DNA of 62,995 nt, filler included, from Sanchytrium tribonematis (Eukaryota), in assembly GCA_018985235.1 (NCBI GenBank). It is 10 parts of 10 records of this genome, joined end to end, with 100 filler letters (N's around TTAATTAATTAA, not from the genome) between each part and the next. Parts side by side here need not be neighbours in the genome. Positions count along the whole stretch, not along the records: positions 54,605 to 58,761 come from JADGIG010000756.1; positions 58,862 to 62,995 come from JADGIG010000757.1; 8 more parts are not named here. One strand, written 5' to 3'. The notes below the pieces were generated by a model that had not been told where the DNA came from, searched no databases, and worked only from the letters and a program-made list of their open reading frames with translations. Positions 12,370 through 59,813 of the stretch are shown piece by piece; the first letter of the stretch is position 1, and every line of letters begins with the position of its first letter. Position numbers and translations under genes: made by a program.

Positions 12370-13619
12370 ATGAGTCATTGGGAAAAAGTTTTAACGGACA
12401 ATATAATTTCATCGGACATCAATCATTCAAAATTGTTGCTTTTAGGAGATAGAAAATCTGGAAAATCTACATTTATACAATCCACGTTCAACACAAATCC
12501 AACCACTGACATTTTATTATCCTACAACTATTTTCCATTTAGGGATATAGAAACAAACGATCATTTGCTCGACTTAGATATATACTCGGTCTCAGAGGCT
12601 TTGGATATAACTTCACATATATTTAGCAAAGAATACTCATTAGATACCTTGTGTTGTATATTTCTAAGTTGGGAAGAACCTCAACTTTTCATCGAAAATA
12701 TTGAAAAATGGCTTAAATTTCTACTGGACGTTGTAGATTTAAGCTTGAAGCGTAAATACACAATTGTTGATAAGGAAAATACCATTTTCATAGATAACGA
12801 AGATCCGAATTTTAAAAAGGTTCAGTTCGAACTAAACGAAGCGCGAACTAAATTAAAACGAGCTCTACAGCTTTTGAGGGAATCTCAAGAGAAATCCGAC
12901 ACATTTGGAAAGGACTTATCGAGACTGGACCTTGTTCCATTAAATGAAGGCTCATTAGAAGTAAATTTAGGGATCCCTATTGTATTTATTACATCTAAAG
13001 TTGATGTATGTCTTAATGTTGGAGACGAATTGGAAATAACAAGTGCCAAGTATGGTTTTATAATGCAAGCTATACGGAAAGTGTCGTTAACAATGGGAGC
13101 GGCACTAATAGCCTTGAACAACAAACTCGAACAAAGTAGAAATGAGTTGTACAGTTACTTGCTATACAGGCTAAATCCAGCCTCATTTAAATTTAATTCC
13201 AAAATAGATGGAATAAACCTTGAATCGCTAGTAATTCCTGCAGGTTGGGATTCTTTACCCAAAATCAAGACCATATCCAATACGTCCAACTTAGAAGAGT
13301 CGTTTTTACTGCAAATGACTTTTGAAAATTGTCATCATGATGTTAAAATATCAGGAAGGTCATATTTTAGAAAGCAATTTCCAAGTGACACGCATGATAT
13401 GGAGACGGTTTTTTCTATTAATTGTAGGATGATATCGGAAAAGCACAAAGTTTGCCAAGTTATGTAGACGGATTGTCTGTACAATTTCCTACTTTAAAGG
13501 AGGGCAACATGGCAGTTGCGAGCAATTTAGAAGCGGCAATTGAAACTCCAGTGGCAGCAACCCCAAAGTCTGATGAATTGAATGACTTTTTCCAAAGTTT
13601 GATAAATAAAAAGAAATAA
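12370..13619 (+). CDS. DYNC1LI: Cytoplasmic dynein light intermediate chain; exons 12370-13407 and 13428-13619
   Basis: P-loop-like GDRKSGKS, NLGIPIVFITSKVD and VIPAGWDS. Removing a 20-nt intron restores the C-terminal effector-binding helix ELNDFFQSLINKKK. Confidence 0.92.
13408..13427 (+). other. 20-nt GT-AG spliceosomal intron
   Basis: gttttttctattaattgtag, phase 0; removal restores the DLIC C-terminal FFxSL motif. Confidence 0.85.
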
Positions 13620-20398: not shown

Positions 20399-20408
20399 TT
20401 CGAGGCCA

Positions 20409-20750
20409 ATGAACAAAATATTAATTCCAGAAGATATGATTCAGATTTTATCAGATTATGTTAAATCAGTTTTGGAAGATAAACCAGCTGATTTATTAGA
20501 GTGGAGTACCAAATATTTTGAAAATGAAAACAAGGATTATGCAAGAATTTTCCTTAAACACAATGCCTTGGACTCTGATGTCAGATTAGACTTGACTAGT
20601 GTCCTCTCTTTATACAGAAATGAAGAGCTGCAGAACCATATTTGTAGTGGAGAGCATTCAACAAGTAAAGACTATCTAAGAGCTATTCTAGACTATCAGT
20701 TTTATCCCAAAAAGATAGAAATTGAGGATTATTTGAACCAAAATAAATAA
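20409..20750 (+). CDS. RIIa dimerisation/docking-domain protein (ropporin/radial spoke RSP11-like)
   Basis: IPEDMIQILSDYVKSVLEDKPADLLEWSTKYF matches the RIIa D/D consensus. Confidence 0.75.
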   Translation: MNKILIPEDMIQILSDYVKSVLEDKPADLLEWSTKYFENENKDYARIFLKHNALDSDVRLDLTSVLSLYRNEELQNHICSGEHSTSKDYLRAILDYQFYPKKIEIEDYLNQNK

Positions 20751-22011
20751 TTATACAAATTTCTTTATTGAATTTCCTCTTCTGCTTCTATAAACTGTCA
20801 CTGCTGCAACTAGTCCTGCTTGTGCGATAAAAAAGTATATTAAATACTTCAAAATAGACCATACAGCCTCACTTAATTTAGATTCTGTAACTTTGGCATG
20901 CTCGTCTTTAAAAGAATTTGTTTGGCCTTGCTTCATTAAAAAAGAATACCTGAACTCTAATAATTAGATCTTTTAACTGATCAATTTCTGATTTAAAATC
21001 TCTTTGTAATTCCTGTAATTTGGCAAGAGCGGGTCCAAAATCCACTGTCGTTCCGAAAGAGGATCCACGATTATCTGAATATTTTTGAATTGCATCTGTT
21101 AAAGATTGAAGCTTATTAGAGTCAAAATCTGATAGTTTTGATGATATTTTAGCCATCTCTGATTTAATATTTGAAATCTCGACTTTCAATTCTGTAACTC
21201 CTCCTTTGTCCAACGGTGGTTGCGAAGTCTCTGCATGCTGCTTTTGATCTTCCAGTTTTTTCTCATATTCTTGAACCTTCTTTAATTCTTCGGAAGAAAC
21301 CTCAGGTGCCTTAGAACCGTCTTTTTCCTTGGCATCAAGATCAAACAACAAAAAGGATATTAAATCGTGATCATCTGGATTAATACTTGATTCGGCTCCT
21401 ATAACAATGGAATGATCTTTGGGTAGGTCAATTTTCACTGAGAAGCACTCAATCGTTGAATCGCTATCTCCTAAGGCCAGGCTCAATTGGGACTCCTTAT
21501 AAGTCAGTTTCACTAGGTAATTTTTGAATGAATTTCTATAATTATTAAAGCATCCCTCTTTCCTATATTTGGTGTAATCTCCTGAATTGGCAATGGTTTG
21601 CGCTCCATCAGTTTGCACCAGAGCAGTGTGCTGTCTCATTCCGCTTTGAGAATTACCATTAAATATTATCCCAACACCCTTTAAATTAGGAGCGACGCCT
21701 AAAGGTCCAAAGTTATCAAATTTAGGATCCTCCGCAAAATATATTGCGAAACCATTACCACCATATTGACCACCTGTTACTCTAAATTGTGCTTCGATTC
21801 TAAAGTTTTTATACGGGACTTTTCCGCTTACAACATGTCCTTTTGACCCTACCAAAGAATTTGCCAATCTTAAAGCTAGTGGATTATGTTGTGCTATTTT
21901 AGTTTTCCAAAAAGGAATCTCGCCCACCTTTGGAAAAAAGTAAGGCGTCTTCAGTATAAAATGCCAGTCTAACCTTTCAAATGAAAATAACAAAATTAAT
22001 GTTAGCAACAT
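20751..22011 (-). CDS. L-type lectin cargo receptor (ERGIC-53/LMAN1/Emp47-like); exons 22011-20950 and 20930-20751
   Basis: Lectin motifs GGNGFAIYF, GVGIIFN and DDHDLISF; coiled coil. After a 19-nt intron, a TM segment and C-terminal KKFV di-lysine/dihydrophobic sorting signal. Confidence 0.88.
20931..20949 (-). other. 19-nt GT-AG intron
   Basis: gtattcttttttaatgaag, phase 0; joins the lumenal domain to the TM and KKFV tail. Confidence 0.85.
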
Positions 22012-22046: not shown

Positions 22047-23938
<1,892 letters not shown>

Positions 23939-36100: not shown

Positions 36101-37381
36101 GCTAATGCCTCTAATTCTGTGATATGCCATTGGGCTTCTTGTCTATTTAAGGTACGACTCCAAAAGTACAATGGACGACCCTTTTGTAGTAAAACCGCAC
36201 CAAGGCCTCGATTACTTGATGCATCAGTTCTGATTTCAAATGGAAGTGTTGCATCGGGATAATTCAGTAAAATGCGTTTAGACAACATTATTCGCACAGC
36301 ATGGTAAGCAAGTGCTTGTTCGTCCTCCCATTTCCAGTGCACATCCTTTCGAAGCAGTTTAAGAAACGGTTGTGCAATTGCTGAGTAATTTGGGAGATAC
36401 CGTGCATAAAATTGAAAAGCACCGTGTATGGATGCTAATTGTTTCTTATTTTGAGGCTCGCTGGCTCTCAATAATGCCTCTACCTTTTCGGGATCACTTC
36501 TAATGCCCTTGTTGCTCACAATGTGTCCGAGCAGTTCCATTTCTTGGTAACCAATTGAACACTTAGAAGGCTTCAATTTGTAATTGTACTTTCGTAACCT
36601 TGTAAATAAGCTCCTTAAGGTGTCAAGCATACTCTCGAAGGTGGGATCGCCTGTGCTAATGTCATCTTGGTAAGCCTTAGCTAAATCAAGCCCTTCCACC
36701 ATTTCATCCATATTTCTTTGAAAGATTGCAGCAGCATTAACCCAGCCAAATGGGACAACGCAATATTGGTACATCTGCCCGTCAAAATAGAAAGCGGTAT
36801 ACTTTCGAGAATCAGGGTGCAGTCCTATCTGCCAATAGCCTGACGTCAAGTCAAAATGACAAAACCACATGGACAGTGCAAAACGGAGAATTTGCTCTTC
36901 TGTATCTGCCTGGGGATAGACGTCTAATACGGTGATACGATTTAAAGGACGAAGGTCAGTGCAAAATCTCTTTTCTGTTGTGTTCTTTTTGTCAACAATG
37001 ACGGTTTCATTCAAATATTCGGAGGTAGGGATCTTTTCAATTACATTTTTCTCCAACATTAATTTGATGTTTTCAGCCATGATTTGGAATTCTTTCGCAG
37101 TTCTAGGTCGCCTCCTTTCTTTGTAAGGGACATCAGTGGTCACTTTAATTATCACTGGGGGAACTTTGGCACCAATCTGTCCCGTAAATACATCAATAAA
37201 TTCTTTGATCTGCTCTTTTTTGTCGCGATGAAGTCTCGGGTTAATATTTAGCTGTTCCCAAACCTTCTCAAACGTATTCTGTTCGTCAAAATCATCGAAG
37301 TGTATAATATCGGCGACGCCTGGGAGTTGTTCTTGAAATTGTTCATTGTATTCTTCTACTACATATTCTTTTCCATCAATA
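33171..37381 (-). mobile_element. Ty3/gypsy LTR retrotransposon pol region (RT, RNase H, integrase); two frameshifts; LTRs and gag outside the contig
   Basis: RT: RFCTDLRPLN, FDLTSGYWQI, VPFGWVNA, YQDD. RNase H: TDAS, ELEALAIV, VFTD, DADYLSR. Integrase: HHCC (HVDRNAMH...CQWC), D,D-E (LAMDV, LILDNA, CERSN) and GPF motif. Domain order RT-RH-IN is gypsy type. Confidence 0.95.
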
Positions 37382-42420: not shown

Positions 42421-43416
42421 ATGAAACCTATTCTTCGCATTTGCATCTATTCCATTATTTTGATAATATTATACCAACTAATAAAACCCGCTGTTCAAAC
42501 TACTAAAGAAGAATCTGGAGACAATTATGAACCGATAATAAATGAGAACTTTCGTACAAATGGCTTCAAAGATAACAATAGCAGCGATAGTTTGGAGAAA
42601 TTTATCAAGTTAGTCAATATTCCACGAGTGTCTGGGTCTGATGGAAATAAAAAAGTGCGAAGTTTGGTTGTAGATCATTTAAAGAAGACGGGATTCGAGG
42701 TTGAATTAGACAAATTTACCGACCAAACACCAATTGGAGAAATTGATTTTGCTAATATTATCGGGAAAAAATTTAAAAACAAGAAAAAATTCAAGAATCA
42801 AAAAGCAATTATTTTAGCGGCTCATTATGATTCAAAATACTTCAAAGGACAGGAATTTTATGGTACTATAGATAGCGCCACTTCGGTCGGTCTATTAATG
42901 TCAATATCTGAAAAAATAAGCAAGTTGAAACCGTGTGATTCCAAATACGAGTTGTATTTGGTATTTTTTGATGGCGAAGAAGCTTTTGAAAAATGGACTG
43001 CAACAGATAGCGTTTACGGTGCACGTCATTTAAGTGAAAAGTGGAAGGGAATTATGGATGATTTTGAGTACATGATTTTGTTTGATCTTTTGGGCGCCAA
43101 AGATGCAGGGGATGGACATATTCGAAAAACGCCTTATTCTTATGATAAAATATACAAAAAATTACTACAAATTGACGAATCTGATGATTCTTATCAAATT
43201 TTGGGAGGTTCCACTTACAAACAATTTGATGACGACCACCGTCCATTTATGGAGAAGGGAATGAAAGTTGTCCATATTATTCCTCATGAGTTTCCGAAAG
43301 TTTGGCATACACTAGATGATAAAATTGATTTTGTGGACATGAATATAATGAGGAATTACGAAAAATTAACATGGCAATTCTTAATTAAAGAACTGGAACT
43401 TGAAGGCTGCCTTTAA
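42421..43416 (+). CDS. Glutaminyl-peptide cyclotransferase (M28 family) with N-terminal membrane anchor
   Basis: AAHYDSK, IDSA, FFDGEEAF..WT.TDSVYGARHL, FDLLGA, DDHRPF, FPKVWHT.DD. Confidence 0.92.
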   Translation: MKPILRICIYSIILIILYQLIKPAVQTTKEESGDNYEPIINENFRTNGFKDNNSSDSLEKFIKLVNIPRVSGSDGNKKVRSLVVDHLKKTGFEVELDKFTDQTPIGEIDFANIIGKKFKNKKKFKNQKAIILAAHYDSKYFKGQEFYGTIDSATSVGLLMSISEKISKLKPCDSKYELYLVFFDGEEAFEKWTATDSVYGARHLSEKWKGIMDDFEYMILFDLLGAKDAGDGHIRKTPYSYDKIYKKLLQIDESDDSYQILGGSTYKQFDDDHRPFMEKGMKVVHIIPHEFPKVWHTLDDKIDFVDMNIMRNYEKLTWQFLIKELELEGCL

Positions 43417-43431
43417 TAAATTAGTATTTAT

Positions 43432-45597
43432 TTACAAATCTTTGTCTGTCGATTCATTTTTCAAAAACTTTAAATCTTTTTTCTTTTTCTTATTTTCTTT
43501 TTTGTTTTTCTTCCGTTGTTCTTTTTCTTTGATTTCCTCTGGAGTTTTCGTACGTTTCTTTTTTTTCTTAGAAAATTCTTTATGCTCTTCTTCGAGCAAT
43601 ATTGGGCGTTTAGCGGATACACCGATTCTTTTTTTGTATTCCAAAAGTAAATTATCTCGTAATTCACAAGACGGGAAATTCGACATATCATAATATTTTA
43701 TGTTGACCTCCAGCAGCCAATTCTGATTAATCGGGGTACAAGTTCTAATATAATCCTGGGCAGTTTGAACCACTTCATTAAACATTACCAAAAATTCCTT
43801 CTTTTTCACGACACTGCTTGGATGAAGCTTGACATCTTGATTGTCTTTCACAGTTTTGTAAGATTTAGCAGTTCTGTTATAGTAAGCTACGAAACTAAAG
43901 AATCCTTCCAAAAGGCACTTTTTAATATTAATTTCATGAAGATTCTTGTTTTCCGGTTCCTTATAGTTTGACTTTTTCGGGAGATATTGCTTGAGTTGTT
44001 GTTTAATACGCACTGCACTATTTAAATTTCTCATATTAAGATAGTTTTCCCAGCACCACTGTTTTTTATCAGAAACTTGGATAAATTCTTTAAAAATATT
44101 TAAAAGTGTAAAGTGATCTCCATTTTGATCTTTAAAATGAGAATGGCAAGAATCAGCTTCTTCCCTTTTGTCAATTGGTCTAAGTAAACAATTTGGAACG
44201 CTAAGCATCGCGATGATGCTCAAAACATCTTCTACACAATCATATTTTGGTGCGGTTAGCACAATTTTCGCATATTCGGGGTCTAGTGGTAAGTCTGACA
44301 TCAAATGGCCTATTTCAGTCATCTGGCCGTCGTCGTCAATGGCTCCGAGATAATTTAGCATTTCTAATGCCCTGATTAAAGTTCCGGGACTAGGCGGATC
44401 CATGTAAGCAAAGTTGACGATATCATCGATGCCAATTTTGAATAATTGAAGAACCACATGCGTTAAATTACTTCTTTGCATTTCAGGATATGTTTGTGGT
44501 ATCAAATCATTAAACGAAGCTTCAGTGTACAATCGAAAACACTTTCCGGGTCTTGTTCTTCCCGCACGACCCGATCTTTGATTCGCGGAGGCTTTTGAAA
44601 TTGGAGTCACTTGCAATGATTGCATCCTCGTCTGTGGATTGTATGCCTTTTGTTTTACGAACCCAGGGTCTACCACATAAACCACTCCATCAACAGTAAT
44701 ACTCGTTTCGGCAATATTAGTCGCCACTACACATTTTCGCGAGGTTTTAGATGCGGGCAAAAAGATTTTTTTTTGCTCGGCAGGATTGAGTTGAGAATAT
44801 AATGGCAAGACAGTTATGGGCTTCAAAGATTTGCAAGACTGTCGGATTCTTTGACAAGCGTCTTCAATTTCGTCTTCACCTGTCAGAAAAACTAAAATGT
44901 CACCTTCATCCTCATATTCATGAATCAGTTTGACAGTTTCAATACTGGACTCTAAATAATCTTTTTGAGGCTTGTCGGCGTAAAATATGTCTACAGGAAA
45001 TGTTCTTCCTGGAATTTTTAATAGTGGTGCGTTGAAAAATGTGCTAAATTTCTCCGAATCCAAGGTTGCACTCATCACGACAATCTTGATGTCCTCTCTT
45101 TTGGTCAGAAGCTCTTTTAATACCCCCATTAGGATGTCAGTAGCCAAGGTCCGTTCGTGAGATTCATCCAAAAGTATAACTTTGTATTTGAGAAGTAAGG
45201 GGTCTGTCATGGCTTCTCTCAACAACATTCCATCCGTCAAGTAAATTAGTTTAGTCTTCATGCAAGTCATGTCCTCAAATCTTATTTTATATCCACATTC
45301 TTTTCCCAACTCAACATCCATTTCTGTTGCAACTCTTTCGGCAACACTCATTGCAGCGACACGACGTGGCTGAGTACAAGCAATAACGCCGCTTTCTTTT
45401 AAATAATGCTCTGCAGCGAACTGAGGCAATTGTGTTGTTTTACCTGATCCAGTTTCTCCGATAATGAGAAATACTTTATTATTGTCTAACATTTCAACAA
45501 ACTCGTTCTTATACTTATAAACAGGTAGTTTTTTGCGAGTCTTAAGTATTTCATCGTGTTTCTGCGAATATTTTGAAGTTGTGAAAGGATTTATCAT
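43432..45597 (-). CDS. PRP43: DEAH-box RNA helicase Prp43/DHX15
   Basis: INPFT...RKKLPV, GETGSGKTTQLPQF, DESHERTLATDILMG, SAT, QRSGRAGRTRPGKCFRLYTE; first ATG at 45597. Confidence 0.92.
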   Translation of the reverse strand: MINPFTTSKYSQKHDEILKTRKKLPVYKYKNEFVEMLDNNKVFLIIGETGSGKTTQLPQFAAEHYLKESGVIACTQPRRVAAMSVAERVATEMDVELGKECGYKIRFEDMTCMKTKLIYLTDGMLLREAMTDPLLLKYKVILLDESHERTLATDILMGVLKELLTKREDIKIVVMSATLDSEKFSTFFNAPLLKIPGRTFPVDIFYADKPQKDYLESSIETVKLIHEYEDEGDILVFLTGEDEIEDACQRIRQSCKSLKPITVLPLYSQLNPAEQKKIFLPASKTSRKCVVATNIAETSITVDGVVYVVDPGFVKQKAYNPQTRMQSLQVTPISKASANQRSGRAGRTRPGKCFRLYTEASFNDLIPQTYPEMQRSNLTHVVLQLFKIGIDDIVNFAYMDPPSPGTLIRALEMLNYLGAIDDDGQMTEIGHLMSDLPLDPEYAKIVLTAPKYDCVEDVLSIIAMLSVPNCLLRPIDKREEADSCHSHFKDQNGDHFTLLNIFKEFIQVSDKKQWCWENYLNMRNLNSAVRIKQQLKQYLPKKSNYKEPENKNLHEINIKKCLLEGFFSFVAYYNRTAKSYKTVKDNQDVKLHPSSVVKKKEFLVMFNEVVQTAQDYIRTCTPINQNWLLEVNIKYYDMSNFPSCELRDNLLLEYKKRIGVSAKRPILLEEEHKEFSKKKKKRTKTPEEIKEKEQRKKNKKENKKKKKDLKFLKNESTDKDL

Positions 45598-46061: not shown

Positions 46062-47750
46062 GTGTGGCACAATGCAAGAAAGAATGAAACCAGGCAATAG
46101 AGGTAAAAGAGACTCGCAAATGTTGATGATGCGATGGCTTAACAAATATTATTATGAAACAGGCATGAGTCCATTGGAATTGGAAATGACTTGGCACTGT
46201 AAATACCAAATTGGTGTGGATCCGAGTGAGTATGAGTATTGTTTGATGGTGGATGCAGATACGATTTTAACAAAACAGTGCTTGATGCCTTTAATGAGCC
46301 GTATGCACCATGATACTCAAATTATGGGTTGCTGCGGAGAAACTAAATTGCAAAATGAATCACAAAATATGGTCACGATGATGCAGGTGTATGAATATTA
46401 TATTTCTCATCATTTGAGCAAGGCTTTTGAATCTTTATTTGGAAGTGTCACTTGTTTACCAGGTTGTTTCTGTTTATATCGAATTAAACAACCCATTAAG
46501 AACAGTGGGAGCGTAGAATGTAATTTATTATTTATTTAGTGAAAGGAAAACCATTATTAATTTCTAATCAGATTATTTCTGATTATGGTACGAATGAAAT
46601 TGATACGCTGCATTTGAAGAATTTATTGAGTTTGGGAGAAGATCGTTATTTGACTACTTTAATGTTGAAATACTTTAATTATCAAAAAATGGTGTTTGTG
46701 AGTGATTCTGTTTGTTTAACAATGGCACCAGATCAATTTAAAGTTTTAAAATCTCAAAGAAGAAGATGGATTAATTCTACTGTACATAATTTAGCAGAAT
46801 TATTGAATTTGGATTCATTATGTGGATTTTGTTGTTTTAGTATGAGATTCATGGTTTTATTGGATTTGACGAGTACGGTGGTTGGACCAGTCGGTGTTTT
46901 ATATTTGGGATATTTGGTTGGACTCATTATTTATGGATTAATCACAAATACATTGGGATTCTTTCCATTGACCTCGTTTTTATTATTGAGTGCGATTTAT
47001 GGATTGCAAATGTTGATTTTTATTATTAAGCGAGATTTTCAACATGTTGGTTGGATGGTCATTTATATTTTTGCAATTCCTGTATTCCATTTAATTCTTC
47101 CATTGTATAGTTTTTGGCATTTTGATGATTTTACTTGGGGAAATACGAGAATGATTCAAGAAGATGGAAAGAAAATTGTGGTAAATGAGGGTGAATTTGA
47201 TGTGAATATGATTCCTCACAAGACTTGGAATGAATATGAAGTACAAATGAAGGAATTGCAGATTGAGCGAGGCACTGTGAATGCGCCACAACCAGGTGTG
47301 GAAAATACAAAACTTGGCAATTCTACTCAAAATAGTCAAACTTCTTTATTAGCGAAACCCTCTAATCAAATGAAATCTATGAATCGTCAAGTGAGTTGGT
47401 TTGTAGATGAGAATACACCTCAATCTAACAGAATGAGTATTTACAAGTCGCCTCAGCCTCAAAATAATTCAATGGGCCAAATGATAACTCCAACAGGTAT
47501 GGCTGTGAAATTGAGCACACCAACTACTCCAACTTCCAATAATAACAATTTGAATAAGAGAAGCATTTATGTAAATGATTTGCCAAGTAAAGAAGTGGAT
47601 GACGATTCCTTATTGAAAAGTATTGCAATTATTAAAAAGAATGGAGAATTTACTAGGAAACAAATACTGGTCATGTTGCAACAAGAATACATGTGTGAAC
47701 TGGGAAAGGATAGGATTTATGAATTACTCGATCAAATGGAATTGAAATAA
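46062..47750 (+). CDS. Chitin synthase, division 2 (class V/VII-like), 5' truncated; exons <46062-46519 and 46540-47750
   Basis: [72 protein letters not shown]-like C-terminus. Confidence 0.94.
46520..46539 (+). other. 20-nt GT-AG intron
   Basis: gtaatttattatttatttag, phase 1; joins the two chitin synthase ORFs in frame. Confidence 0.9.
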
Positions 47751-47800: not shown

Positions 47801-50235
47801 ATGGAAGCGAAATGGATATCAATTTTGACAAAACTTCAATTTTCATTTGGACAGTCAGTGAAAAGTGAGATACCAAAAGAGATGGTAACATTCTTAGAAG
47901 GAAATGATAAATTGCAATTTGTGGCATTTGACAAGCAATTGAGGTGTTCTTCACGATTTATGCCAAATTTGGTGAATGTATATATTATCAAGGACCAGGA
48001 GATCACAATGGGAGTGCTACAGTGTAACCAATTTGATGCTGCATATAGTTTATATCAAGTCTATGGTAATTTGGTGGAAGATGCCTTTGTGAAGCAGCAA
48101 TTGGACAAAAGTGAAAAATATATTGGTCATATGACTATTAAAGAACGATTCAACATGGATTTGAAAACAGCTTCACAGCTCTCATTCCCTGAATTCGAGA
48201 AAGTGGGCGAAAAATGGTGCAATGAGCTTGAGTTGATTCTGTTAGAAAGTGAGCAGTTGCAAAAGCAGGATGACGAATTAACAGGACCCAGAGCAGAACT
48301 GATATACTGGCAACAAAGAGAGTATAAATTTAAAGAGATTCTCGACCATTTGGGGTCCGATATTTTTCGGAAACTCAAGGAGAAGCTTTATGAAGAAGTC
48401 AGCCCAGTGTATGAACACTTGTGCAGCCTGGAAAAAAAAATTCTTCATCACTATAGTGAAGCTCATGACAACAGTTCTTTCTTGGCACCGTTAGATGAGT
48501 ACTCCCAAGGACTTTGTAGCCTCAATTATGAGAAATTGCTTCATTCTATTGGACCCATCATGAATATTTTATACGCGGTGTATTGTGGCTCAAAATACTT
48601 TAATACAGCAGACAGAATAACCAGCCTTTTGATTAAAATCACAAACGAAATTTTATCAACCGTAAAAAAGATTTTAGCAACTAGACTAAAAAACAATTAC
48701 TACGAAGATGCAAAAACCTATATTGATGATTTGCCGAAGGTCTTGGAAATTTATAAAACCTATACTAGTGAGTTCCAACAAATCAAAATGAAATTGAGTT
48801 TGCAAGAAAGTTTGCCTAAATTTGAATTCAGTGAAATGTATGTTTTTGGGAGACTTGAAGCATTCACCAAAAGACTTAAGAAGATTGTTGATTTTTGTGA
48901 TACGATTCAAGTATTAGAAAATTTCAAATCAATTCACATAGATGGATTTGGTCCTTTGCTTAAAAAATATGGAACATTTCACAATCAAATTCTCCAGAAA
49001 AAGACGGAATGTTTGGACTACAAACGACCCGAATTTGACCAAGACTATGAGTTTTTAAAGTCTCAAAGTGGGATTCTCTTAGCTGATCTTCAAAGTCACT
49101 TTTCTTCCTTTGTACAAAGATATGAAGATGCTAAATTTATATTACTGAAATTAAAAACCATTGAACCTTTACAAAAGCACTTTGGTCTTGATTTCTCTCC
49201 TCAATTCGATTTGATGTTTTCAAGATTTGCAACAATTACTTTACCAAATGTGAAAAAACATTTTGATAAATATAAAGACGACCCAAGGCCTTGGAATCTT
49301 GATGACACTTTCACTATGGGAAAATTAAAATGGTGCAAATCGATGGTGGCATTAATTCAAAATCCGCTAGAAGCTTTGTGTACAATTAAAGATTTTTCTA
49401 ATCATCCTGATTACTCAAAATGTGTTAGAAATTACAATAAATTGATGAAGGCGATTATGGCTATTGAGAATATGGTTTTGGATCAATGGAAGTCTCAAAT
49501 AGACCATGCAGTTGACAGTTTATCAGCTTCCATATTTATTGTAGATGATAAGTGCACCTTCTATGTAAATTTAGATCCGATGATTGAAGATTATGTGAGA
49601 GAAGTGGAATATTTTCAGTCGAATGATTACTCTATTCCAGAAAACGTCATTGCGATTCTTGACGCTTGGCCAACAATCCTTCAGGTTAAAAAAGACCTAG
49701 AAGATATTGTAACGGAGAGAAATGTTTTGCTAAAAGATCACTGGACTCCCCTAAAAGACTATTATCTCAACTTTTCTAAGTATTTCGATAACAAATTGGC
49801 CTTGGGTATCATCTCAATCAATTGGAATTCCTTTTCATTAGTTAAATACACTCGAGAACTAAAAACGATTTTTGGCGACGCTCTTCTTGTAAAGTCGAGA
49901 ATCAACGAAATTATAAAAAATGCTGTAGAGCCCATACTTCACAAGTTATCCCACATATTATGGTTCATCGTCAGCCAAACCGACAAAGTTTCCGTCGGCA
50001 ATTACAAAGATGAATCTTTTAAACGTATAGGTAGATGTGTTTCCGCTGCAAACAATTTGATGTTACAAGTTGAGCAGTCTGGATTTACCATAAAAACCCT
50101 TCTTTCTAATTTCCTTAAGAAATTGGGTATCTTGACAGATGAATCTCTTTCAGTAACGTTTGAAAAAGTTCTTGGCCACTTGAAATCGCAAGTTGTGGAA
50201 AATCTTGTGTCTGGAATCAAATGGTCTATGGAGGA
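47801..50235 (+). CDS. Axonemal outer-arm dynein heavy chain (DNAH5/DNAH8, gamma-type) N-terminal region; 3' truncated
   Basis: GPRAELIYW, SKYFNTADRITSLLIKITN, FEFSEMYVFGRLEAFTKRL, LDYKRPEFDQDY. Confidence 0.85.
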
Positions 50236-50335: not shown

Positions 50336-50336
50336 A

Positions 50337-50756
50337 TATTTGACAACAGATACTCAAAATGGGAAATTGGTGGTATTTGATGAAGCCCATAAATATTTAC
50401 AGCCAAATGGAAAAGATGAATTAAGTGCGTCAATTATGACAGCAGTGCGTCAAATGAGACATCATGGGTTGCGTGTCGTGATTTCGACTCAAAATCCAAA
50501 ATCAATTCCACCAGAAATGATTGATTTAGTTAGTGTTGCATTTTTACATCGATTTCATTCTCCGGATTGGTTTCATTACTTAAAGAGTAAATTACCATTG
50601 GAAGATGAGCATTTTGATGATATTATGGCATTGGAGACTGGTAATGCATTGGTATTTTACGATTGGGATGAATTATTTGGAGGTGAGAAGTTTTGTGAAT
50701 TGGCGATTCGAAATAGATTGACGGCAGATGCGGGATATTCTAAAGTGAGTCATTGA
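50337..50756 (+). CDS. C-terminal part of a HerA/FtsK/VirB4-superfamily P-loop ATPase
   Basis: Walker B VVFDEAHKYL; arginine-finger region RQMRHHG followed by VVISTQNP; LETGNALVF; IRNRLTADAG. Confidence 0.8.
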   Translation, partial: YLTTDTQNGKLVVFDEAHKYLQPNGKDELSASIMTAVRQMRHHGLRVVISTQNPKSIPPEMIDLVSVAFLHRFHSPDWFHYLKSKLPLEDEHFDDIMALETGNALVFYDWDELFGGEKFCELAIRNRLTADAGYSKVSH

Positions 50757-50923: not shown

Positions 50924-51300
50924 TTATTGAAAGTATTGCTTTGTCTTTGATTTCTCTACTCCAAATACTTTATACTTTTCATCATCAATTTTAATCAAAT
51001 GAAATTGATCTAATAAATATTCCTGATTCTTTTGTTCTAAATGTAAATCCATCCACGCACCATCATATGCATCCCATTTAACTAATTTACCATCCATTTG
51101 TAATCCAAATATATCTTCATCAATCACTTGAATTTGAATGATAAATTCTATTGTTGATTGAATTACTGGCATTGTTAATAATACACCCTTGTAAAATATC
51201 GAGTGATGCATTTAGTATCCTGATTAATCAATACACAAAATGTATTCTTGTTATAAATGGAGAATCGACTAATTTTATCATGAATCTTGTAGTTTTGTGA
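50924..51300 (-). pseudogene. Degenerate tectonin-like paralog (last blades only, frameshifted)
   Basis: IQIQVIDEDIFGLQMDGKLVKWD...LDQFHL...VFG aligns with the C-termini of the neighbours; upstream similarity (FSIYNKNTFCVL) lies in another frame. Confidence 0.5.
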
Positions 51301-51403
51301 TAAATTGTCCCATTGTTTTGTCTTAATGGTTGCTGATATGAGATGATTGCTATGATTGGATCAATCATTTTGAAATTAAAAATATTTGATAATTTTATTT
51401 ATT

Positions 51404-52132
51404 TCATTTTGTGATTCTCTCGTTGCCATAAATTGTATATGTAGTAGAATCTTTTCCTTCTGTAATGTAAAAATTATCAAATTGAGTGTCAACTCCTGTT
51501 CTAACCCATGTGTGGTGTTGTCTATTCCAAATATAAATGTATCCAGAAGAAGTGATTCCAAATAAATTGTCACCTACTAATTGAATTTGACTCATTTGTT
51601 TTACGGATCTTAATTTTTTAAGCCCTTTACCAAAATCGAATTGCACGCTATAATTGACTAAATCGTCATTCATTTTGTAAATTGAAAGACAGTATCTGCC
51701 ATCACTTGTCATGGTAGAACTGCCTACATTTTGTTCACTCTTAAGAGTCTTTAACTTACCATTCAACATATTGTAAATGGCAAATTGATAGTTTGTGACT
51801 CCGGCAATCACATTTCCATTATTGGCCAAGTAAAATTGATCCAACTCAATGTTTTTGACACCTTCGTTTTGAAACCAATTATTTGTTGATGCATATTCAT
51901 TTTTGCACCAAATCTGACGTTTGTTGTTGCTAATGCAAATTCGAGTTCCTTGGAGGTCCATTGCAAAATGATGGACTTCCCCTGGTGCTTCTACTTTTTT
52001 CCATTCATTGTTTTTATCGTTGATATCCATGCAAAACAATTCATAATTGTGATTGTTTGCACAAATTGTAGTTCCAGAGACAGCATATCCAAATGCATTT
52101 TCAAGAGATATTTGTGAGTGAGAGAATTTCAT
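51404..52132 (-). CDS. Tectonin-like beta-propeller lectin, paralog 1
   Basis: Repeats of W...[IV]..[FI].[ML].G..IC....IWC; SQIQLVGDNLFGITSSGYIY; ATG at 52132 preceded by CCC. Confidence 0.72.
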   Translation of the reverse strand: MKFSHSQISLENAFGYAVSGTTICANNHNYELFCMDINDKNNEWKKVEAPGEVHHFAMDLQGTRICISNNKRQIWCKNEYASTNNWFQNEGVKNIELDQFYLANNGNVIAGVTNYQFAIYNMLNGKLKTLKSEQNVGSSTMTSDGRYCLSIYKMNDDLVNYSVQFDFGKGLKKLRSVKQMSQIQLVGDNLFGITSSGYIYIWNRQHHTWVRTGVDTQFDNFYITEGKDSTTYTIYGNERITK

Positions 52133-52319
52133 TGTTTTAAAAAGGGAGATGCGGTATTTGTAGTTATTTGATGCGTGCAAGTCATTTATGAGTGGGTGCA
52201 AGATACTTGCATCATTTCTGTGTATGGATGCAAGACACGTGCAGCTTGTCGTAGAGTGGTTGGAAAAGTGTTTTGCAATTCTGTTATTGGTAAATCAAAT
52301 AATGAAAGACCATCATTTA

Positions 52320-53006
52320 TTATTTTGAATCATCTGGTACGCCGTATGGAGTCAATGTAATTTCTCCATTTTGTGGTCGTTCAACAATATGAAATTGCTT
52401 AAATTTGTTTGGTAAAAATAATTCAAAAGATCCAGTTTCACTTCTTTTGTAAATTTTACCATCCTCTCGCAATCCAAAAATATTGTTGTTTGTTACTTGG
52501 ACTTGAGTATACCTATACCCAGAAGTCAATGTTAAAATGGTAGATTCTGGTTGTAATTGGCATTGAATGCATCCATCCGTGGAAATCACACAAAATCGAC
52601 CATTTGGTGCCACTGAAGAAGAGTTAATTGTTTTTTTTGTGGGACTTGATAGATGATTGTTGGCATCTCTTGTAACAAATTGTTTGTTTAAATCAATACC
52701 CGCAATGCCATCTTCGCTTAAATCAATTTGTTGCAAATATAAATTGGAAACTGGATTCCATCTTAAATCTGCAGATAATTTTTCAATATCGTTGCACCGT
52801 ACTCGATTTTTAGTATCTGTGTAACAGATTCTAGTTTTATAAACTGCAAATGATTTCCCCTTTTTGGCAATTCGAGTCATTCCTGTTCCTGTTTCTGCTA
52901 AATAGTCGCAATGCAATTCTAATGCAGTATTGGTAGCACAAATAAATGTATCTGATGCTGCATAACTTGTTGAATCTTTTAAGGAAGCAGATGATAAGAA
53001 ACTCAT
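52320..53006 (-). CDS. Tectonin-like beta-propeller lectin, paralog 2
   Basis: YAASDTFICATN, LQQIDLSEDGIAGID, TQVQVTNNNIFGLREDGKIY. Confidence 0.72.
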   Translation of the reverse strand: MSFLSSASLKDSTSYAASDTFICATNTALELHCDYLAETGTGMTRIAKKGKSFAVYKTRICYTDTKNRVRCNDIEKLSADLRWNPVSNLYLQQIDLSEDGIAGIDLNKQFVTRDANNHLSSPTKKTINSSSVAPNGRFCVISTDGCIQCQLQPESTILTLTSGYRYTQVQVTNNNIFGLREDGKIYKRSETGSFELFLPNKFKQFHIVERPQNGEITLTPYGVPDDSK

Positions 53007-53128
53007 TGTTTGTTTAAGGAACGACAGCTATTTATAACTTTTTGGAAATTAATAGACATGTGTGATTGGATACTGTGTGCGTGCAGAGGCGCTGTGATTC
53101 GACACAGGGTGATTGCAGAGTCTGTTAA

Positions 53129-53473
53129 TTAATTGGACAAGTGTTTTGCAAAACCCAAGGGACTTGATCCTTGAGGTTTTGATTGAAATATCCAAATGGA
53201 ACTCTGCAAAAGAAATCGAGATATATATTCATTAATGTAAAAAATTATTGCTTCTTGCCATACTCCATAAACTTCAAATCTTTCCGAATAAACTTTTCTT
53301 AATTTCGAACCAATTTTCTTGTCATGAATACTGATATAGAACTGTGAATATGAGCGTGCAGTATTAGATTTCAATGGCACTTTTGCCCATCCATTGCTTA
53401 GCACATAAATTTGGCCATCGGTTCCTAAGCCATAGGCTGTACCTCCAAATGATTAAACGCGAGTAATTTGCAT
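53129..53473 (-). pseudogene. Tectonin-like fragment with an in-frame TAA
   Basis: MQITRV*SFGGTAYGLGTDGQIYV...SQFYI...VYG; TAA at 53455-53453 where paralogs have Gln. Confidence 0.55.
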
Positions 53474-53607
53474 CGAGCCAGGTTTCTGGTTAGGTTTCTT
53501 CTGTGTATAAATGGCACAGATCGTTTTGCAGTTTTATGATTGGTGAATCATTCTGTGTCATTTATCGTGTTTTACACGTTGAAGTACGTTAAAAGTCATT
53601 CTATTTA

Positions 53608-54306
53608 TTATTTTTCTGCGCCATAAATCATAGCATATCCCTGAACATCTCTCACATAAAATTGACGGAATAAATTTGGAATATTCATGTTTATCCAAGT
53701 ATTTTTGTTTAAATCATATTTGTATATCTTGCCAGTATCAGTGAGTGCATATATATTGGTACCAGCTAGTTGAATCTGAGTAAATCTTATGGATTTGTTT
53801 GAATGTAATATTTTCAAATCATCACCAAATTGACATTTGATACATCCATCTGATTTTAAAATGCAATAATTTCCATTTATATCCATGGAAGATGATTTGA
53901 CATGAGTATCGATGGCTCTAGACCACTGGATTTGTGGATATTTGGAAATATAAAATAAACCATCAACTCCAATTCCACTGATTTGATCACCTGCCAGATT
54001 GATTTGTTGTAAATCACCATTAATTTGATTCCAATTGCCATTTGGTAAATTCGAATTGCACCAAATTTGATGATTTAATTTGGTAATGCAGATATTTCGA
54101 CCATTAATGGAAATAGTATCCACCTGTTCAATATTTGAGATCAAATCCCACTTTCTAACATATGCAATGGTCGTATCCATGCAAAATATTTGATTGAATT
54201 TGTTGGTGGCGCAAATGAAAGAGTCAGATGCCACATATTGGATACCATTTTCTAATTTATAGTTGGAAATGATGGAATTCATTATTTGTTGGTCATTGGA
54301 ATTCAT
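53608..54306 (-). CDS. Tectonin-like beta-propeller lectin, paralog 3
   Basis: WNQINGDLQQINLAGDQISGIGVDGLFY matches the tectonin blade consensus; 232 aa is about six blades. Confidence 0.78.
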   Translation of the reverse strand: MNSNDQQIMNSIISNYKLENGIQYVASDSFICATNKFNQIFCMDTTIAYVRKWDLISNIEQVDTISINGRNICITKLNHQIWCNSNLPNGNWNQINGDLQQINLAGDQISGIGVDGLFYISKYPQIQWSRAIDTHVKSSSMDINGNYCILKSDGCIKCQFGDDLKILHSNKSIRFTQIQLAGTNIYALTDTGKIYKYDLNKNTWINMNIPNLFRQFYVRDVQGYAMIYGAEK

Positions 54307-54605: not shown

Positions 54606-56856
54606 TTAGATGAAGCCATAAAATCTGATGCTAAATTGGCAGAGTTAGACTCGATCATGAAATCTGGCAACAATTTGTTGACATCTAAATTGATTAGCAC
54701 TTGTTTACCTAATGGTCTTCAAAAAGCTTTTCCAGAAAATGGTTTTCAACTAATGACTGGTACTGGTGCTAAAGGTTCGAACGTTAATGCTAGCCAAATT
54801 AGTTGTTGCCTAGGACAACAAGAACTCGAAGGTAGACGACCACCCATTATGCAAAGTGGGAAATCATTACCTAGTTTCCGAGCAAAAGATATACATCCGA
54901 GAGCTGGTGGATTTATAGCAGACAGATTTTTGAGCGGTATAAGACCTCAGGAATACTACTATCATTGTATGGCAGGAAGGGTATTTTTCTTTAATTTAGG
55001 AAGGTCTGATCGATACAGCCGTCAAAACTGCTAGATCGGGATATTTACAAAGATGTTTGATAAAGCATTTGGAAGGGTGCTCCGTTGCCTATGATAATAC
55101 TGTTAGAGATACCTCCGACAAAAATGGAGCTGTAATACAATTCTTATATGGAGAAGACGGTTTGGATGTTATGAAATCAAATGGTATAAACGACTTGGAG
55201 TTTTTGAAATCAAATTACAAATCCATGAAATCCGCCAATCAAGACGATGTTGTGAGAAAATTGCCAAGCAATGGTAAAATAGAAAAACAAATGGCGAAAT
55301 CCTTGAAAAAGAAACACAAGTATGATCCATGTATTAACATTTATTCCCCGTCTCAAAATCTAGGCAGCACAAGCGAAAAATTTAATGAAGCATTGACCAG
55401 TTTCTCTAATGATGAGTCTTTTAAAACTTTTATGAATCTTCAATACATGAAGGCCCTTGCAGAACCAGCAGAAAGTGTTGGCATATTGGCAGCTCAATCT
55501 ATAGGCGAGCCCAGTACACAAATGACGCTGAATACCTTTCATTTTGCTGGATTTGGTGCAAAAAATGTCACACTCGGTATCCCACGATTAAGAGAAATTC
55601 TCATGACCGCTAGTGCAAATATAAAAACCCCTATGATGCAAGTCAAGGTTTTAAATGAAGTCAGTGACAGAAAACTCGATCGATTTGTGAAGTCCTTAAA
55701 GAAGATTCAGTTTGCAAATATTGTACAAAAGATTACTGTTAATGAAAGCTTAAAGTATACATCGCATGACAAAATGAGGCAGTATGATATTAAAATTGAA
55801 TTGCTCAACAAAAAAACCTGCAAACAAATTTATAACCTCAAATTGGACGATGTTTTAGATTGTCTTGAAAAACGACTTGTACCTAATTTGATTCAACTAA
55901 TTAACAAAACATTGAAATCTAAAGAAAAAATTAGCATAGAGGTTCAAGGCGAAGAAGAGGACGCTCTAATGGAAGGTTTGGAAGAAATTATCAATGATGA
56001 AATTGGTGCCGAAAAGATTGAAGATGAAAATGACGAAGCCATAGAGGATAAAAAACAGGATGTGGAATACGAGGATAATGAAGACGTGGAAATGGTAGAT
56101 TCTGATCATGGAAATGAAGCTGTTTTGAAAGAATTTGAGAAGAAAACAGCGGAGGATATTGACGAGCTTTTGGTTGCTTCTGCTCGCAGAAATTTGACTA
56201 CCAAATTTGAATACGTTTCAGAATTTGACTATGATAACAAAAAGGGTACTTTTTGCAGCTTGTCAATTAGCATTCCTAATGAAAAAATTACAAAAGCCTT
56301 AAAGTCTGTAAATTCCTTCAAACTGATGCCGCTGCTAGAGACAGTTTGTCACAAAGTAGTTTGCAGACAGGTTCCTGGCGTATACAAAGCATATGAAAGC
56401 AAGAATGTGGCAGGAGAAAAAATAGTCGTAGTAGAAGGAAATAATTTAAAGGCGTTGTGGTCTTTTGCGGAAATTATAGATATTAATGATATTTACACAA
56501 ATGACATCGCAGCAGTATTGAAGGTTTATGGTGCTGAAGCAGCTCGACAAGCTATTGTTAAAGAAATTTCCCAAGTCTTCGATGTTTATGGAATTGCAGT
56601 TGATATAAGACACTTGTTTTTAATTGCAGACTATATGACGAGGGAAGGTGGATTTCAACCATTTAATAGAATAGGTTTGGCAAAACATCCTTCGCCAATG
56701 CTGAAAATGTCATTTGAAACAACTTGCCAAGTTTTGCAAGACACAGTCATGTTTAATGGTAAAGACAATGGCAAAAGTCCAAGTTCTAAGCTGGTTCTTG
56801 GAGATATTGTAGGTTCCGGAACTGGGAGTTTTGATATAATGGTGGAAAGTAAATGA
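54606..56856 (+). CDS. RPA1: RNA polymerase I largest subunit, 5' truncated; exons <54606-54980 and 55000-56856
   Basis: [25 protein letters not shown]; spliced bridge helix [45 protein letters not shown]; acidic Pol I expander region; no CTD. Confidence 0.97.
54981..54999 (+). other. 19-nt GT-AG intron in the RPA1 bridge helix
   Basis: gtatttttctttaatttag; exact removal restores the invariant [14 protein letters not shown]. Confidence 0.95.
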
Positions 56857-56862
56857 GATTTA

Positions 56863-58761
56863 TTATATTTTTTCGTATTTTCCTATATATCTTTTATCAG
56901 CCCAAGCAAGCCTGCCAATACTAATTTTTTCATGTAACTTTTGGCTGTTGGTGGGCCTTTTGATGAGAAATGAAATGGAATGTGCACCACCATAACTATT
57001 GAAGGATAGTGGGAATAGACGGGCAGATTCATCAATCTCATCCAAATATTCTGTATTCTCTAAATTTTTGACTTTTTTGGTTGTGAGCGAGACTTGGTAT
57101 CTCTTGATTTTGATCGGAGGGCCATCCTCTTGGTGTTGGTTCTGATGCATATTTCTGATAGTCCTATATCTGTAACCAATATATAAGATAGATGCCATTA
57201 ATATGCCAATAAAAGAGCTCATGATTGTAAACAAAACAATTTCTACGGTATTTCCATTTCCACAATATCCTATATTTCTGACCTGCTGTACTCTCAGCTC
57301 CCCGATTAACGGCGTACTGTAATTGTGGCTGAGCTTGAAAAAGAGTGGGCCAATATACCAGTCCATTTCACTACCCAAAATATTGATTTCTGGATTCATT
57401 GATGTGAGAGAGTTTGTATTTCTTAAAAAGTATGGTACACTTTGAAGTTTAAAATCTACTGGATACAAAAACCTACTTTGTATACTAATGTCTGAGCAAC
57501 TATCTTCCAAATAATCGAGCCGTATCCACAAACCTTCCGTTGGGATACGTATTTCGTATCGCTTGTCAGGCTCAATTGTTTTATGTAAAGGGCATTCGTT
57601 TAATATGCGAAAACTAAATTCTTTTGAATATCCTGTGGTTGAACAGATATCATTAGACCACCCACATCCCGGGGAAGAATTACAGGAGAAGCAGTCATAT
57701 TGCAAATTGCAATAGTCAACTAAGTTAAAAAAATATACAATTTGTACAGTTATTGTGAAGTGATCTTGTTATATTCAATTTGCTGGATGAATTTTCGTAA
57801 TTGAAAAGTCTCTTTCCAGGACCCTCGTATAATTGCTCATCTTTAACAAACAAGCGAGATCCTCTTTTAGGAATTAAATCAATAGTTTCAAGAGAGAGAC
57901 ACCTTTCATCGAATAAAAAATATGCACTGATTGCTGAGGATTCTTTAGAGCTCATCCGAAATGGACTGACGACCTGTCCAATAGTATAGTTCTTATATGA
58001 AATGTAATGATTGTAAAAGACATTTGGATTTTTAATGGTGGTCTGGAACCAAATTCTGGAGCTTTTTGAATAGAACCAGATATTGCTCATGAACACAATG
58101 AGAAGATCAGGGTTTATGGCAGATTGTTGTATGCCATATATAATACCCCTAGGTACTCTACTTAGTCGATTTAAAGTTATCTTGTCATTCGAGTCGATTA
58201 AAACATCAAAGATCCCGCTAGATGTATCAGCTAGAACTAAGCTATTGTTAAAGTAAGTATATGTGAAGAAACCATTATTATAATGATATATTTGCTTCCA
58301 ACCGTTTTCACTGTAAACTGATATGTTGGAATTAAAATTTTGGTCAAAATATGCATACTGAAAAGGTTCCCAAAAATCATACTGTCCACCAATTAATATG
58401 TCTGTATTATTTAAAGTAAATGTATCATGTAAAAATAGACTTGGTGTAGTATAATTAATTAATGTTCCTGAATGTGTAATGGAAAAGTTAAACATTTGCA
58501 TATTTGCTCTTCCACCAATTAAATAAATACTATTGTTTTTTTCCAATAAAGAGTAGTCGAGCTGTTCAAATCTGTTAGAATTACAAAGATTAACGTCATT
58601 GTTTGAATTTGATGTGCTGTTCGATTCCACCTCCAATACAAGATCCGCACCACTAGTAATATTTACAAAGCAAACTGGTTTTTCTATGTAGTCTACACAA
58701 ACTGTGTAGTTTTGCGAATGGCACATTGAACCATTTTTAGAAGCATTCAATGCAATCCTGT
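56863..58761 (-). CDS. Attractin-like single-pass surface glycoprotein (kelch-like repeats, PSI domain, TM), 5' truncated; exons >58761-57739 and 57719-56863
   Basis: Kelch-like IYLIGG and ILIGG; many NxS/T sequons; PSI-like CNLQYDCFSCNSSPGCGWSNDIC; TM IVLFTIMSSFIGILMASILYIGY. Confidence 0.65.
57720..57738 (-). other. 19-nt GT-AG intron
   Basis: gtatatttttttaacttag, phase 1; joins ORFs 57725-58750 and 56863-57705 in frame. Confidence 0.85.
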
Positions 58762-58861
58762 NNNNNNNNNNNNNNNNNNNNNNNNNNNNNNNNNNNNNNN
58801 NNNNNTTAATTAATTAANNNNNNNNNNNNNNNNNNNNNNNNNNNNNNNNNNNNNNNNNNNN
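58762..58861. other. Artificial contig spacer
   Basis: N44-TTAATTAATTAA-N44. Confidence 0.98.
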
Positions 58862-59813
58862 CTGCATAAAGCCGGCTCTATATTGAGCAAAATGGCGGAC
58901 ATGAGTAGATTCAATCAAATCTGCCATATTGTCACTTATTAAAAGTCTCCTAAGCTTAGGAACATCTGTCTGTGTATCATCATCCACTAAATTAGTAAGA
59001 ATTACATTTAATCGAGCCCCAACTATATTTACGCACAGGAGCACTCTTTCCAGTCTTATCTTTAATGCTTTCATTAGCACCCACTACAGCATAGGGATAA
59101 TGTTGCAAAATGTCTGAAACTTGATCTTTTCCTTCGCCTGAATTCCAAGGATATACTGGAATCTCAAATTCCTTTAATGAAGCAAGAATTGATTCTTTGA
59201 ATTTTGTTAATTCGTCGGGTGTAAATGCATCTCCCTTTGAAATTACAGGTATTACATTACACCAATTTGAAAGTGTTTTCAAGGCAAGCACATCGAGTTC
59301 TTTCAAACCATGTCCTGTAGGAGGGATAAAATAAAGTATACAGTGAATTCTGGTATCTTGTATATGTTTTCTTTCAGTGGACCTCTCAATATTCAAATGA
59401 CTTTCGTATTGTGCCTTTATATACGCCAAAATTGGTTCGAGATCTGATGATCGATTCAGTGTTAAGCCAAAACCTACTGTATCAAGTAGAGTTAGCCGCA
59501 ATTTAACACCATTTTCTTGTAATAATTGTTCAAATTGTTGCATTTGAATGGTCTTGGCAGGTCTGCTCGAATGAAGTAAAATATTGGTATGAAAGAGAGA
59601 ATTAATGAAAGTAGATTTCCCAAGACCTGTTTCGCCGACTATCATCAAATTGAATGTGTATTCTTTACATTTTGCTTGCTTTAAGGCATGTTCGCTAAAT
59701 GCTTCTATTCCAACCGGGCCTCTTAAAGAAATTTGTTGGTAGTCAGTAGGTGCATCTTGTGGATTTGCGGATCCAAATCGACCTTTATGTTGAAGAGCAT
59801 ATTCCAAAGGCAT
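58862..59813 (-). CDS. Septin, 3' truncated; exons 59813-59006 and 58986-<58862
   Basis: FNLMIVGETGLGKSTFINSLF, DTVGFG, DTRIHCILYFIPPTGHGL, NVIPVISKGD; spliced septin-unique element RKYSWGSIKLDDDTQTDVPKLRRLLI...HFAQYR. Confidence 0.94.
58987..59005 (-). other. 19-nt GT-AG intron
   Basis: gtaattcttactaatttag (contains CTAAT), phase 1; restores the septin-unique element. Confidence 0.92.

Follow-up and report, generated by a model that had tools for sequence, protein, structure and literature searches.

A branch point lying almost against the 3' splice site is a known feature of very small introns. In Stentor coeruleus, an A occupies position 10 of 15 (that is, -6 from the intron end) in 90.9% of introns (PMC9505925), and the introns of Blepharisma undulans follow the consensus GTAAWWTTTATWTAG (PMC13685798). 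Encephalitozoon cuniculi introns measure 22 to 76 nt (PMC3629993), and the word TAAYTT was reported in 13 of 13 of them (PMC2483917). Fixed branch-to-AG spacers without a pyrimidine tract have been described in Yarrowia lipolytica (2 nt, A at -6) and in Trichomonas vaginalis and Giardia lamblia (4 nt each), and the passages of the same source on the 19-nt nucleomorph introns of Bigelowiella natans report no branch signature (PMC2483917). Small introns are also found in Mikrocytos mackini (16 to 17 nt; PMC10245619), in myxobolids and dicyemids (median 22 to 27 nt, in a text that names Microsporidia as the fungal exception to a 30-nt floor; PMC13644364), and in Rozella (about 30 nt; PMC6349667). 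Here we describe seven candidate introns of 19 or 20 nt, each with an A close to its terminal AG, in a 62,995-nt stretch of DNA from Sanchytrium tribonematis (assembly GCA_018985235.1), referred to as the window.

Sanchytrids are algal parasites with genomes of 10.5 to 11.2 Mb and about 35% GC, and their sister group is Blastocladiomycota rather than microsporidia (PMC8371127). The sanchytrid genome paper predicted open reading frames (ORFs) with TransDecoder on contigs, and in the available text the word "intron" appears in a reference title only (PMC8371127). Tiny introns would have been overlooked because the genes of sanchytrids were predicted as simple ORFs. Sanchytrid introns are likewise not described in the accessible parts of PMC10459994 and PMC8476143, and the main text of PMC4435813 gives no intron lengths. 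Literature searches on sanchytrid introns or the sanchytrid spliceosome, and on the shortest or ultra-short fungal introns, found no description, most subscription papers lying outside the search.

All seven inserts begin with GT and end with AG; five are 19 nt long, and two are 20 nt long (Table 1). The initial annotation of this DNA had reported GTA in six donors, and column counts gave the same number (6/7); G is absent from +5 in every intron. The seven 3' ends that it quoted read exactly so at the positions in Table 1, although its overall range of 54981 to 59005 holds only the RPA1, attractin-like, and septin inserts, the other four lying elsewhere in the window. The seven occur in 39 gene pieces, a density of 0.13 per kb that represents a lower bound.

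Table 1. Candidate introns of the window and the Prp43/DHX15 gene
Feature	Coordinates	Strand	Length (nt)	Phase	Putative branch A	3' end	Remarks
RPA1 (RNA polymerase I largest subunit) intron	54981..54999	+	19	0	54994 (+14/-6)	TTAAT-TTAG	
Kelch/cysteine-rich membrane protein ("attractin-like") intron	57720..57738	-	19	1	57725	TTAAC-TTAG	
Septin intron	58987..59005	-	19	1	58992	CTAAT-TTAG	Branch A within TACTAAT
Legume-like lectin intron	20931..20949	-	19	0	20936	TTAAT-GAAG	AAG acceptor
RPT2 (proteasome ATPase) intron	22671..22689	-	19	0	22676	TTTAC-GTAG	In Walker A motif (GK|T)
Chitin synthase (CHS, Chitin_synth_2) intron	46520..46539	+	20	1	46534 (+15/-6)	TTTAT-TTAG	
Dynein light intermediate chain (DLIC) intron	13408..13427	+	20	0	13421 (+14/-7)	TTAAT-TGTAG	GTT donor
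Prp43/DHX15 helicase gene	43432..45597	-					Context only; best PDB matches DHX15/Prp43, E 3.5e-235, versus 1e-182 to 1e-187 for DHX8/DHX16

Removal of the insert restored a conserved protein without a gap in four of the seven genes, namely, RPT2, RPA1, septin, and the lectin. For RPT2, removal produced GPPGTGK|TLLAKAV, with no gap at the junction relative to 22 of 22 aligned homologues (picked from 120 listed). For RPA1, removal joined ...HCMAGR to exon 2, and the Pfam Rpb1_5 match begins, at profile position 16, with the first exon 2 residue. Residue 215 of septin exon 1 corresponds to residue 236 of 8dkt_B and residue 2 of exon 2 to residue 240, such that the numbering is continuous with that of solved septins; on the Pfam Septin profile, the junction falls at 230|231. 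In the case of the lectin, which we take to be ERGIC-53/VIP36-like, three relatives (P0002, P0246, and P0003) part from the window protein at the same Q|V codon. When 34 lengths were tried, only a 20-nt intron, a length compatible with an AG end, fitted the read-through tail of P0003 to the window's exon 2 (24/30 residues; the next best was 10/29). This fit pins the 19-nt lectin intron of the window and shows an orthologous 20-nt intron in the relative.

The remaining junctions are less tightly defined. For CHS, the Pfam profile runs 294|297 across the break, and the acceptor is firm, one placed 6 nt further downstream leading to a stop; given that the junction sits in a variable loop, a 35-nt variant (donor at 46505, same acceptor) is possible. 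Removal of the attractin-like insert links ORFs of 340 and 285 codons and restores the frame, and a 28-nt variant with the same acceptor exists. The name "attractin-like" is that of the initial annotation; no family was confirmed, and no homologue was found to fix this junction. The DLIC insert is the least well pinned of the seven: its removal gives access to a last exon of 63 codons with an FF-SL--KK helix at its end, presumably a DLIC motif, for which PDB and Pfam look-ups gave no confirmation. No match in PDB, Pfam, or Atlas look-ups reached across the DLIC, CHS, or attractin-like junctions. A scan for frame breaks that was blind to the motif recovered four of the seven junctions exactly (RPA1 among them), together with the CHS acceptor; DLIC and attractin-like were missed at its thresholds, and no additional convincing intron was found in the window. 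Judged by these frames and alignments, the seven stretches are very likely spliceosomal introns. U12-type introns carry an extended RTATCCT donor and the branch motif TCCTTAAC; a U12-type assignment was rejected, as the column counts of the seven introns contained neither the U12 donor nor the U12 branch motif.

We then compared the seven introns column by column. A lies at -6 in six of them and at -7 in DLIC, and it lies at +14 in six. T is present at +12 and at -12 in all seven, a pyrimidine is present at -5 in all seven, and T is present at -3 in six. When the interior of each intron was shuffled 200,000 times, six or more introns had A at -6 in a fraction of 0.000565. With the A allowed in any column counted from the 3' end, the fraction was 0.0082, and with columns of either anchor allowed, it was 0.0156; all seven introns shared a TnAY word within some two-column slot in a fraction of 0.000465. 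Decoy GT-N15/16-AG stretches had A at -6 in 199 of 618 cases (32%), with 52 of 128 for AT-rich decoys (41%) and 20 of 97 for T-rich ones (21%). The positional A thus exceeds base composition on these seven introns (P = 0.0006, or 0.016 corrected for column and anchor); the initial annotation had named the lack of such enrichment at -6/-7 beyond the AT background as a refutation. Its T-run upstream of the putative branch site was also found, the T fraction there being 0.45 to 0.73.

The consensus of the 3' ends is YTWAY-N2/3-AG, with a spacer of 2 nt between branch and AG in six introns and of 3 nt in one. The stricter YTAAY-NNAG proposed earlier fits four introns exactly, but RPT2 and CHS read TTTAY, and DLIC has three spacer bases. 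The reported lack of a 3' pyrimidine tract is true, but only because the A is separated from the AG by 3 to 4 bases, mostly T, which leaves no room for one. Similarly, none of the seven lengths is a multiple of three (3n), but avoidance of such lengths is not significant (P = 0.059), and their absence follows from the length mode of 19/20 nt. In 41,916 coding bases, 29 in-frame 3n candidates of 15 to 24 nt bear the motif. The one with the best 3' end, identical to that of the lectin intron, is a 21-nt stretch of dynein (4101-4081), which was rejected since it aligned as coding sequence.

Pairing between the branch site and U2, which the initial annotation had proposed as a test, selected the same A. 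Relative to the U2 word GUAGUA, which is kept across most eukaryotes (PMC13685798), the best-pairing A was the -6/-7 A in all seven introns, with scores of 3.0 to 5.5 of 6 for this canonical word, from which the host's own may differ. CTAAY is found in the septin intron only and YTRAY in five of the seven; a strong WCTRAY word combined with a strong donor was not found. No intron contains an internal AG, and the acceptor is the first AG in all seven; AGs located 4 to 6 bases past the acceptor in RPA1, the lectin, and CHS would break the frame.

These are probably ordinary U2-type introns that have shrunk to near the physical minimum, with the +14/-6 A as the predicted branch and the first AG after it as the likely acceptor. 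In such introns, U2 would pair with YTWAY, leaving the A bulged, and the first splicing step would form a 14-nt lariat loop (15 nt in CHS), close to the loop of about 14 nt anticipated earlier. The T-run would lie inside the loop, where it could serve as a spacer, as a U2 partner tolerant of G-U and U-U pairs, and perhaps as an upstream U2AF2 site. The two distances would look fixed because each is pressed on its lower limit in the intron-poor, very compact genome of a parasite, and no dedicated measuring device would be needed. Thus, the nearly fixed branch-to-AG distance noted initially stands, whereas the ruler measuring from the branch does not follow from it, since the position of the A is just as constant when counted from the donor and the first AG is the acceptor throughout. 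A 3' ruler, a 5' ruler, and two minimum distances fit the data alike, of which two minimum distances are the most likely.

RPT2 offered a comparison with close relatives. The spliced protein is 94 to 96% identical to P0125, P0244, and P0245 (341/361 residues, 94.5%, for P0244, an Amoeboradix gromovi record) and shares ~75% identity with the closest named fungi beyond the clade. In a tree of 21 rows, the window protein groups with these three at 100/100, and a long branch leads to the group; RPT2 thereby places the window with A. gromovi in Sanchytriomycota. The window's intron is absent from all three, each of which ends at residue 361, four residues past IHT (GIYY, CSLN, and GNTN), where the window protein continues. 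Read as a phase 1 intron, the three tails place a stop at intron bases 12 to 14 and a pyrimidine at base 11 in 3/3, with differing interiors. This pattern of stop and preceding pyrimidine is also found in the window's septin and attractin-like introns, where the stop is supplied by the branch-word TAA, and in 41 of 1,005 AT-rich decoys. We infer from these tails that the A at +14 extends across the clade and that introns have been gained or lost between close relatives; the intron after IHT is likely of the same geometry as those of the window. The RPT2 locus (window 22047-23349) is itself a likely case of recent gain or loss, with the intron at GK|T here versus after IHT in three orthologues of 94 to 96% identity. 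Among the best 80 of 428 relatives in a DNA scan (top identity, 75%; no sanchytrid among them), GK|T is contiguous in 80/80 loci and IHT is spanned in 76/80. Since these loci lean to intronless or transcript records, the absence of the two RPT2 introns from them is weak evidence on gain.

Of the lectin relatives P0002 and P0246 (window 20908-22011), P0002 has a VILI-stop tail that would fit either a 20-nt intron (TAA at 13 to 15) or a 15-nt intron ending in TAG, the 20-nt reading being the more parsimonious. A pattern for a 13- to 43-nt intron at the RPA1 site matched 0 stretches in metagenome contigs, and neither this pattern nor the best 80 RPT2 relatives revealed sanchytrid DNA in the metagenome collection. 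Look-ups of nine window ORFs returned single-member clusters only. The window's septin and DLIC occur in the protein collection as unspliced read-through ORFs, and read-through forms of RPT2 occur in public sets likewise.

The window encodes the helicase Prp43/DHX15, which acts in lariat-spliceosome disassembly and in ribosome biogenesis. Slu7 and Prp18 are tied to long branch-to-AG distances and are dispensable at short ones in yeast. With search identifiers that we take to be the appropriate ones, neither factor had a match by name, KO, or KOG among the A. gromovi annotation rows listed (3,755 rows, and the first 171 rows of a second sheet). Prp8, SF3B1, the small and large subunits of U2AF, SF1/BBP, U1-70K, Isy1, Prp17, and Dbr1 are present in these rows (PMC8371127, supplement file 4), and a major spliceosome is therefore present in the lineage, as Prp43 in the window also indicates. 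In rows 1135-1136 of the same file (PMC8371127), the A. gromovi SF1/BBP is annotated as two neighboring ORFs on one contig, an arrangement that a tiny intron within the gene would be expected to produce. Just past the stop codon of the window's Prp43 gene, at 43411-43435 (minus strand), there is an intron-like word with a GTA donor and TACTAAT at +15 that ends in AT at 20 nt or in AAG at 25 nt; it is probably a chance occurrence in the 3' untranslated region.

The near constancy of the A could also arise if the spliceosome measured a fixed span (14 nt from donor to branch, a 2- to 3-nt spacer from branch to AG, or the whole 19 to 20 nt), with sequence secondary and Slu7 and Prp18 possibly lost. 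Such a ruler would account for lengths of only 19 or 20 nt in all seven introns and of 20 nt in P0003, for A at both +14 and -6 in six of seven, and for weak donors that never have G at +5; the zero matches for Slu7 and Prp18, next to one for Prp17, would also fit. However, neither distance is rigid, as the two 20-nt introns gain their base on opposite sides of the A (before it in CHS and after it in DLIC), and a first-AG rule covers all seven because no intron holds a skipped AG. The blank for Slu7 and Prp18 is weak given that about half of sanchytrid proteins are annotated, and we consider a true ruler unlikely. It is more doubtful still that the introns are real but that the near-end A or TAA is not a branch point, reflecting instead an AT-rich background or an in-frame stop kept to target unspliced transcripts for decay. 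For the septin and attractin-like introns, and probably for the three RPT2 relatives, the first in-frame stop is this TAA, and the AT-rich decoys carry A at -6 in 41%. However, the four phase 0 introns keep the A even though their first stop lies 40 to 60 nt downstream, beyond the intron. RPT2 and CHS retain it without a TAA, it is the sole A past base 5 in RPT2, and the shuffles (P = 0.0006 to 0.016) speak against background.

Because the window consists of short contigs chained by linkers, we also considered whether the inserts could be artifacts of assembly or amplification, lesions of pseudogenes, or sites of programmed frameshifting, the assembly being fragmented. This is very improbable: the seven inserts are independent, lie in essential genes on six contigs' worth of sequence, and all share GT...AG and one internal layout; the lectins of relatives from separate records are broken at this very codon; and the gap-free proteins come from removal, not from frameshifting. 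Several points nevertheless weigh against the preferred reading of shrunken U2-type introns branching at the near-end A. The sample amounts to only seven introns, which had already been seen when the motif was formulated. The coding 21-nt look-alike in dynein means that the motif is insufficient by itself. The RPA1 and RPT2 introns pair weakly with U2 (3.0 and 3.5 of 6, respectively), and no Rfam match, U2 snRNA included, was found anywhere in the window. Homology does not fix three of the seven junctions (the CHS donor, DLIC, and attractin-like), though the frame is restored in each, and the three RPT2 tails, being orthologous, are not independent and give no intron length.

The surrounding sequence comprises ten contigs of 30 to 40% GC and is gene-dense, with 12 spacers of -2 to 180 bases in the first contig; genes include cytoplasmic dynein, chitin synthase, septin, COQ7, and TFIIB. 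At nine places between 24439 and 58861, N44-TTAATTAATTAA-N44 linkers introduce stops in six frames, and ORFs crossing them are artifacts. A cytoplasmic dynein heavy chain gene of >4,000 codons without an intron lies head-to-head with DLIC, ~146 bases apart (2-13616), and the N terminus of a second dynein heavy chain is found at 47801-50235. Three PAS domains occur in the product of a minus-strand gene at 39630-41303; the first of them is LOV-like, and judging by its motif the protein is presumably a white-collar-type photoreceptor. Also on the minus strand are a Ty3/gypsy-like retrotransposon (33171-37381; reverse transcriptase, RNase H, and integrase zinc finger), whose frame is broken near 36040 in the manner of a deletion, and a cluster of tectonin/beta-propeller-like lectin paralogues (50924-54306), one of them apparently broken (53129-53452). 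A 14-nt GT-AG stretch in the retrotransposon (36007-35994) was rejected as an intron, since the frame break is a deletion upstream of it. On the plus strand, 50336-50756 encodes part of a P-loop ATPase, which matches Pfam Zot weakly (E 9e-06) and may derive from bacteria or a phage, and 20355-20750 encodes a small protein with a weak match to the RIIa docking domain (E 0.018), a flagellar-type module.

What is new here is the lineage and the size, namely, 19- to 20-nt introns in an unannotated fungal phylum, below the 22 nt of Encephalitozoon; they are shorter than every published fungal intron that the literature search brought up, although a record for Fungi would be a provisional claim. On balance, we lean toward a broader picture in which Sanchytriomycota would have the shortest fungal introns yet (mode of 19 to 20 nt and perhaps 15 nt in P0002), with a convergent ciliate-like -6 geometry, a 14-nt lariat, a spliceosome that keeps U1, U2AF, and SF1 but lacks Slu7 and Prp18, fast turnover of intron positions, and public proteomes truncated at every such intron. 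If this is true, a fungal lineage would join the few eukaryotes with introns under 22 nt, and a third independent branch A at -6 would suggest a shared lower limit of the second step of splicing, with loop length free to differ (14 nt here versus 10 nt in Stentor). For annotation, read-through forms of RPT2, septin, and DLIC in public protein sets can bias gene loss counts for the phylum.

Of the known systems, heterotrichs resemble the window introns in their GTA donor and A at -6 (each in 6/7 here), T-rich interior, and low intron density, and their TTTAT-W-TAG type of end is matched exactly by the CHS intron. The likeness to the tiny introns of Stentor seen by the initial annotation is therefore real, the branch A being at -6 there too (PMC9505925), and since the lineages are unrelated it is convergent. 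Heterotrich introns differ in being 15 to 16 nt long and mostly 3n, with A at +10/+11, whereas those described here are 19 to 20 nt long and never 3n, with A at +14/+15. E. cuniculi is likewise an intron-poor holomycotan parasite, and its TAAYTT word recurs here in a TAAYTT-AG end in three of seven introns. In contrast to the strict GTAAGT donor and strict branch word of microsporidia, the window introns are shorter and have a GTA or GTT donor and a degenerate branch word (PMC2483917, PMC3629993, PMC6349667). Yarrowia, Trichomonas, and Giardia share a branch anchored near the AG and the lack of a 3' pyrimidine tract, with an equal 2-nt spacer in Yarrowia; Yarrowia, however, has long introns with an invariant ACTAAC, and the spacer is 4 nt in Trichomonas and Giardia (PMC2483917). 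Nucleomorph, Mikrocytos, myxobolid, and dicyemid introns are alike in size class, narrow length range, and a donor reduced to GT(A). The nucleomorph, Paramecium, and dicyemid introns differ in that the accounts available report them without a branch signature, and none of these hosts is a fungus; in myxozoans, which are not fungi either, a weak A column drifts away from the AG as introns lengthen. Taken together, these comparisons indicate that the fused branch and acceptor is a known and convergent layout, and that the sanchytrid introns work like those of heterotrichs and microsporidia while departing from the lengths of the former and the strong signals of the latter.

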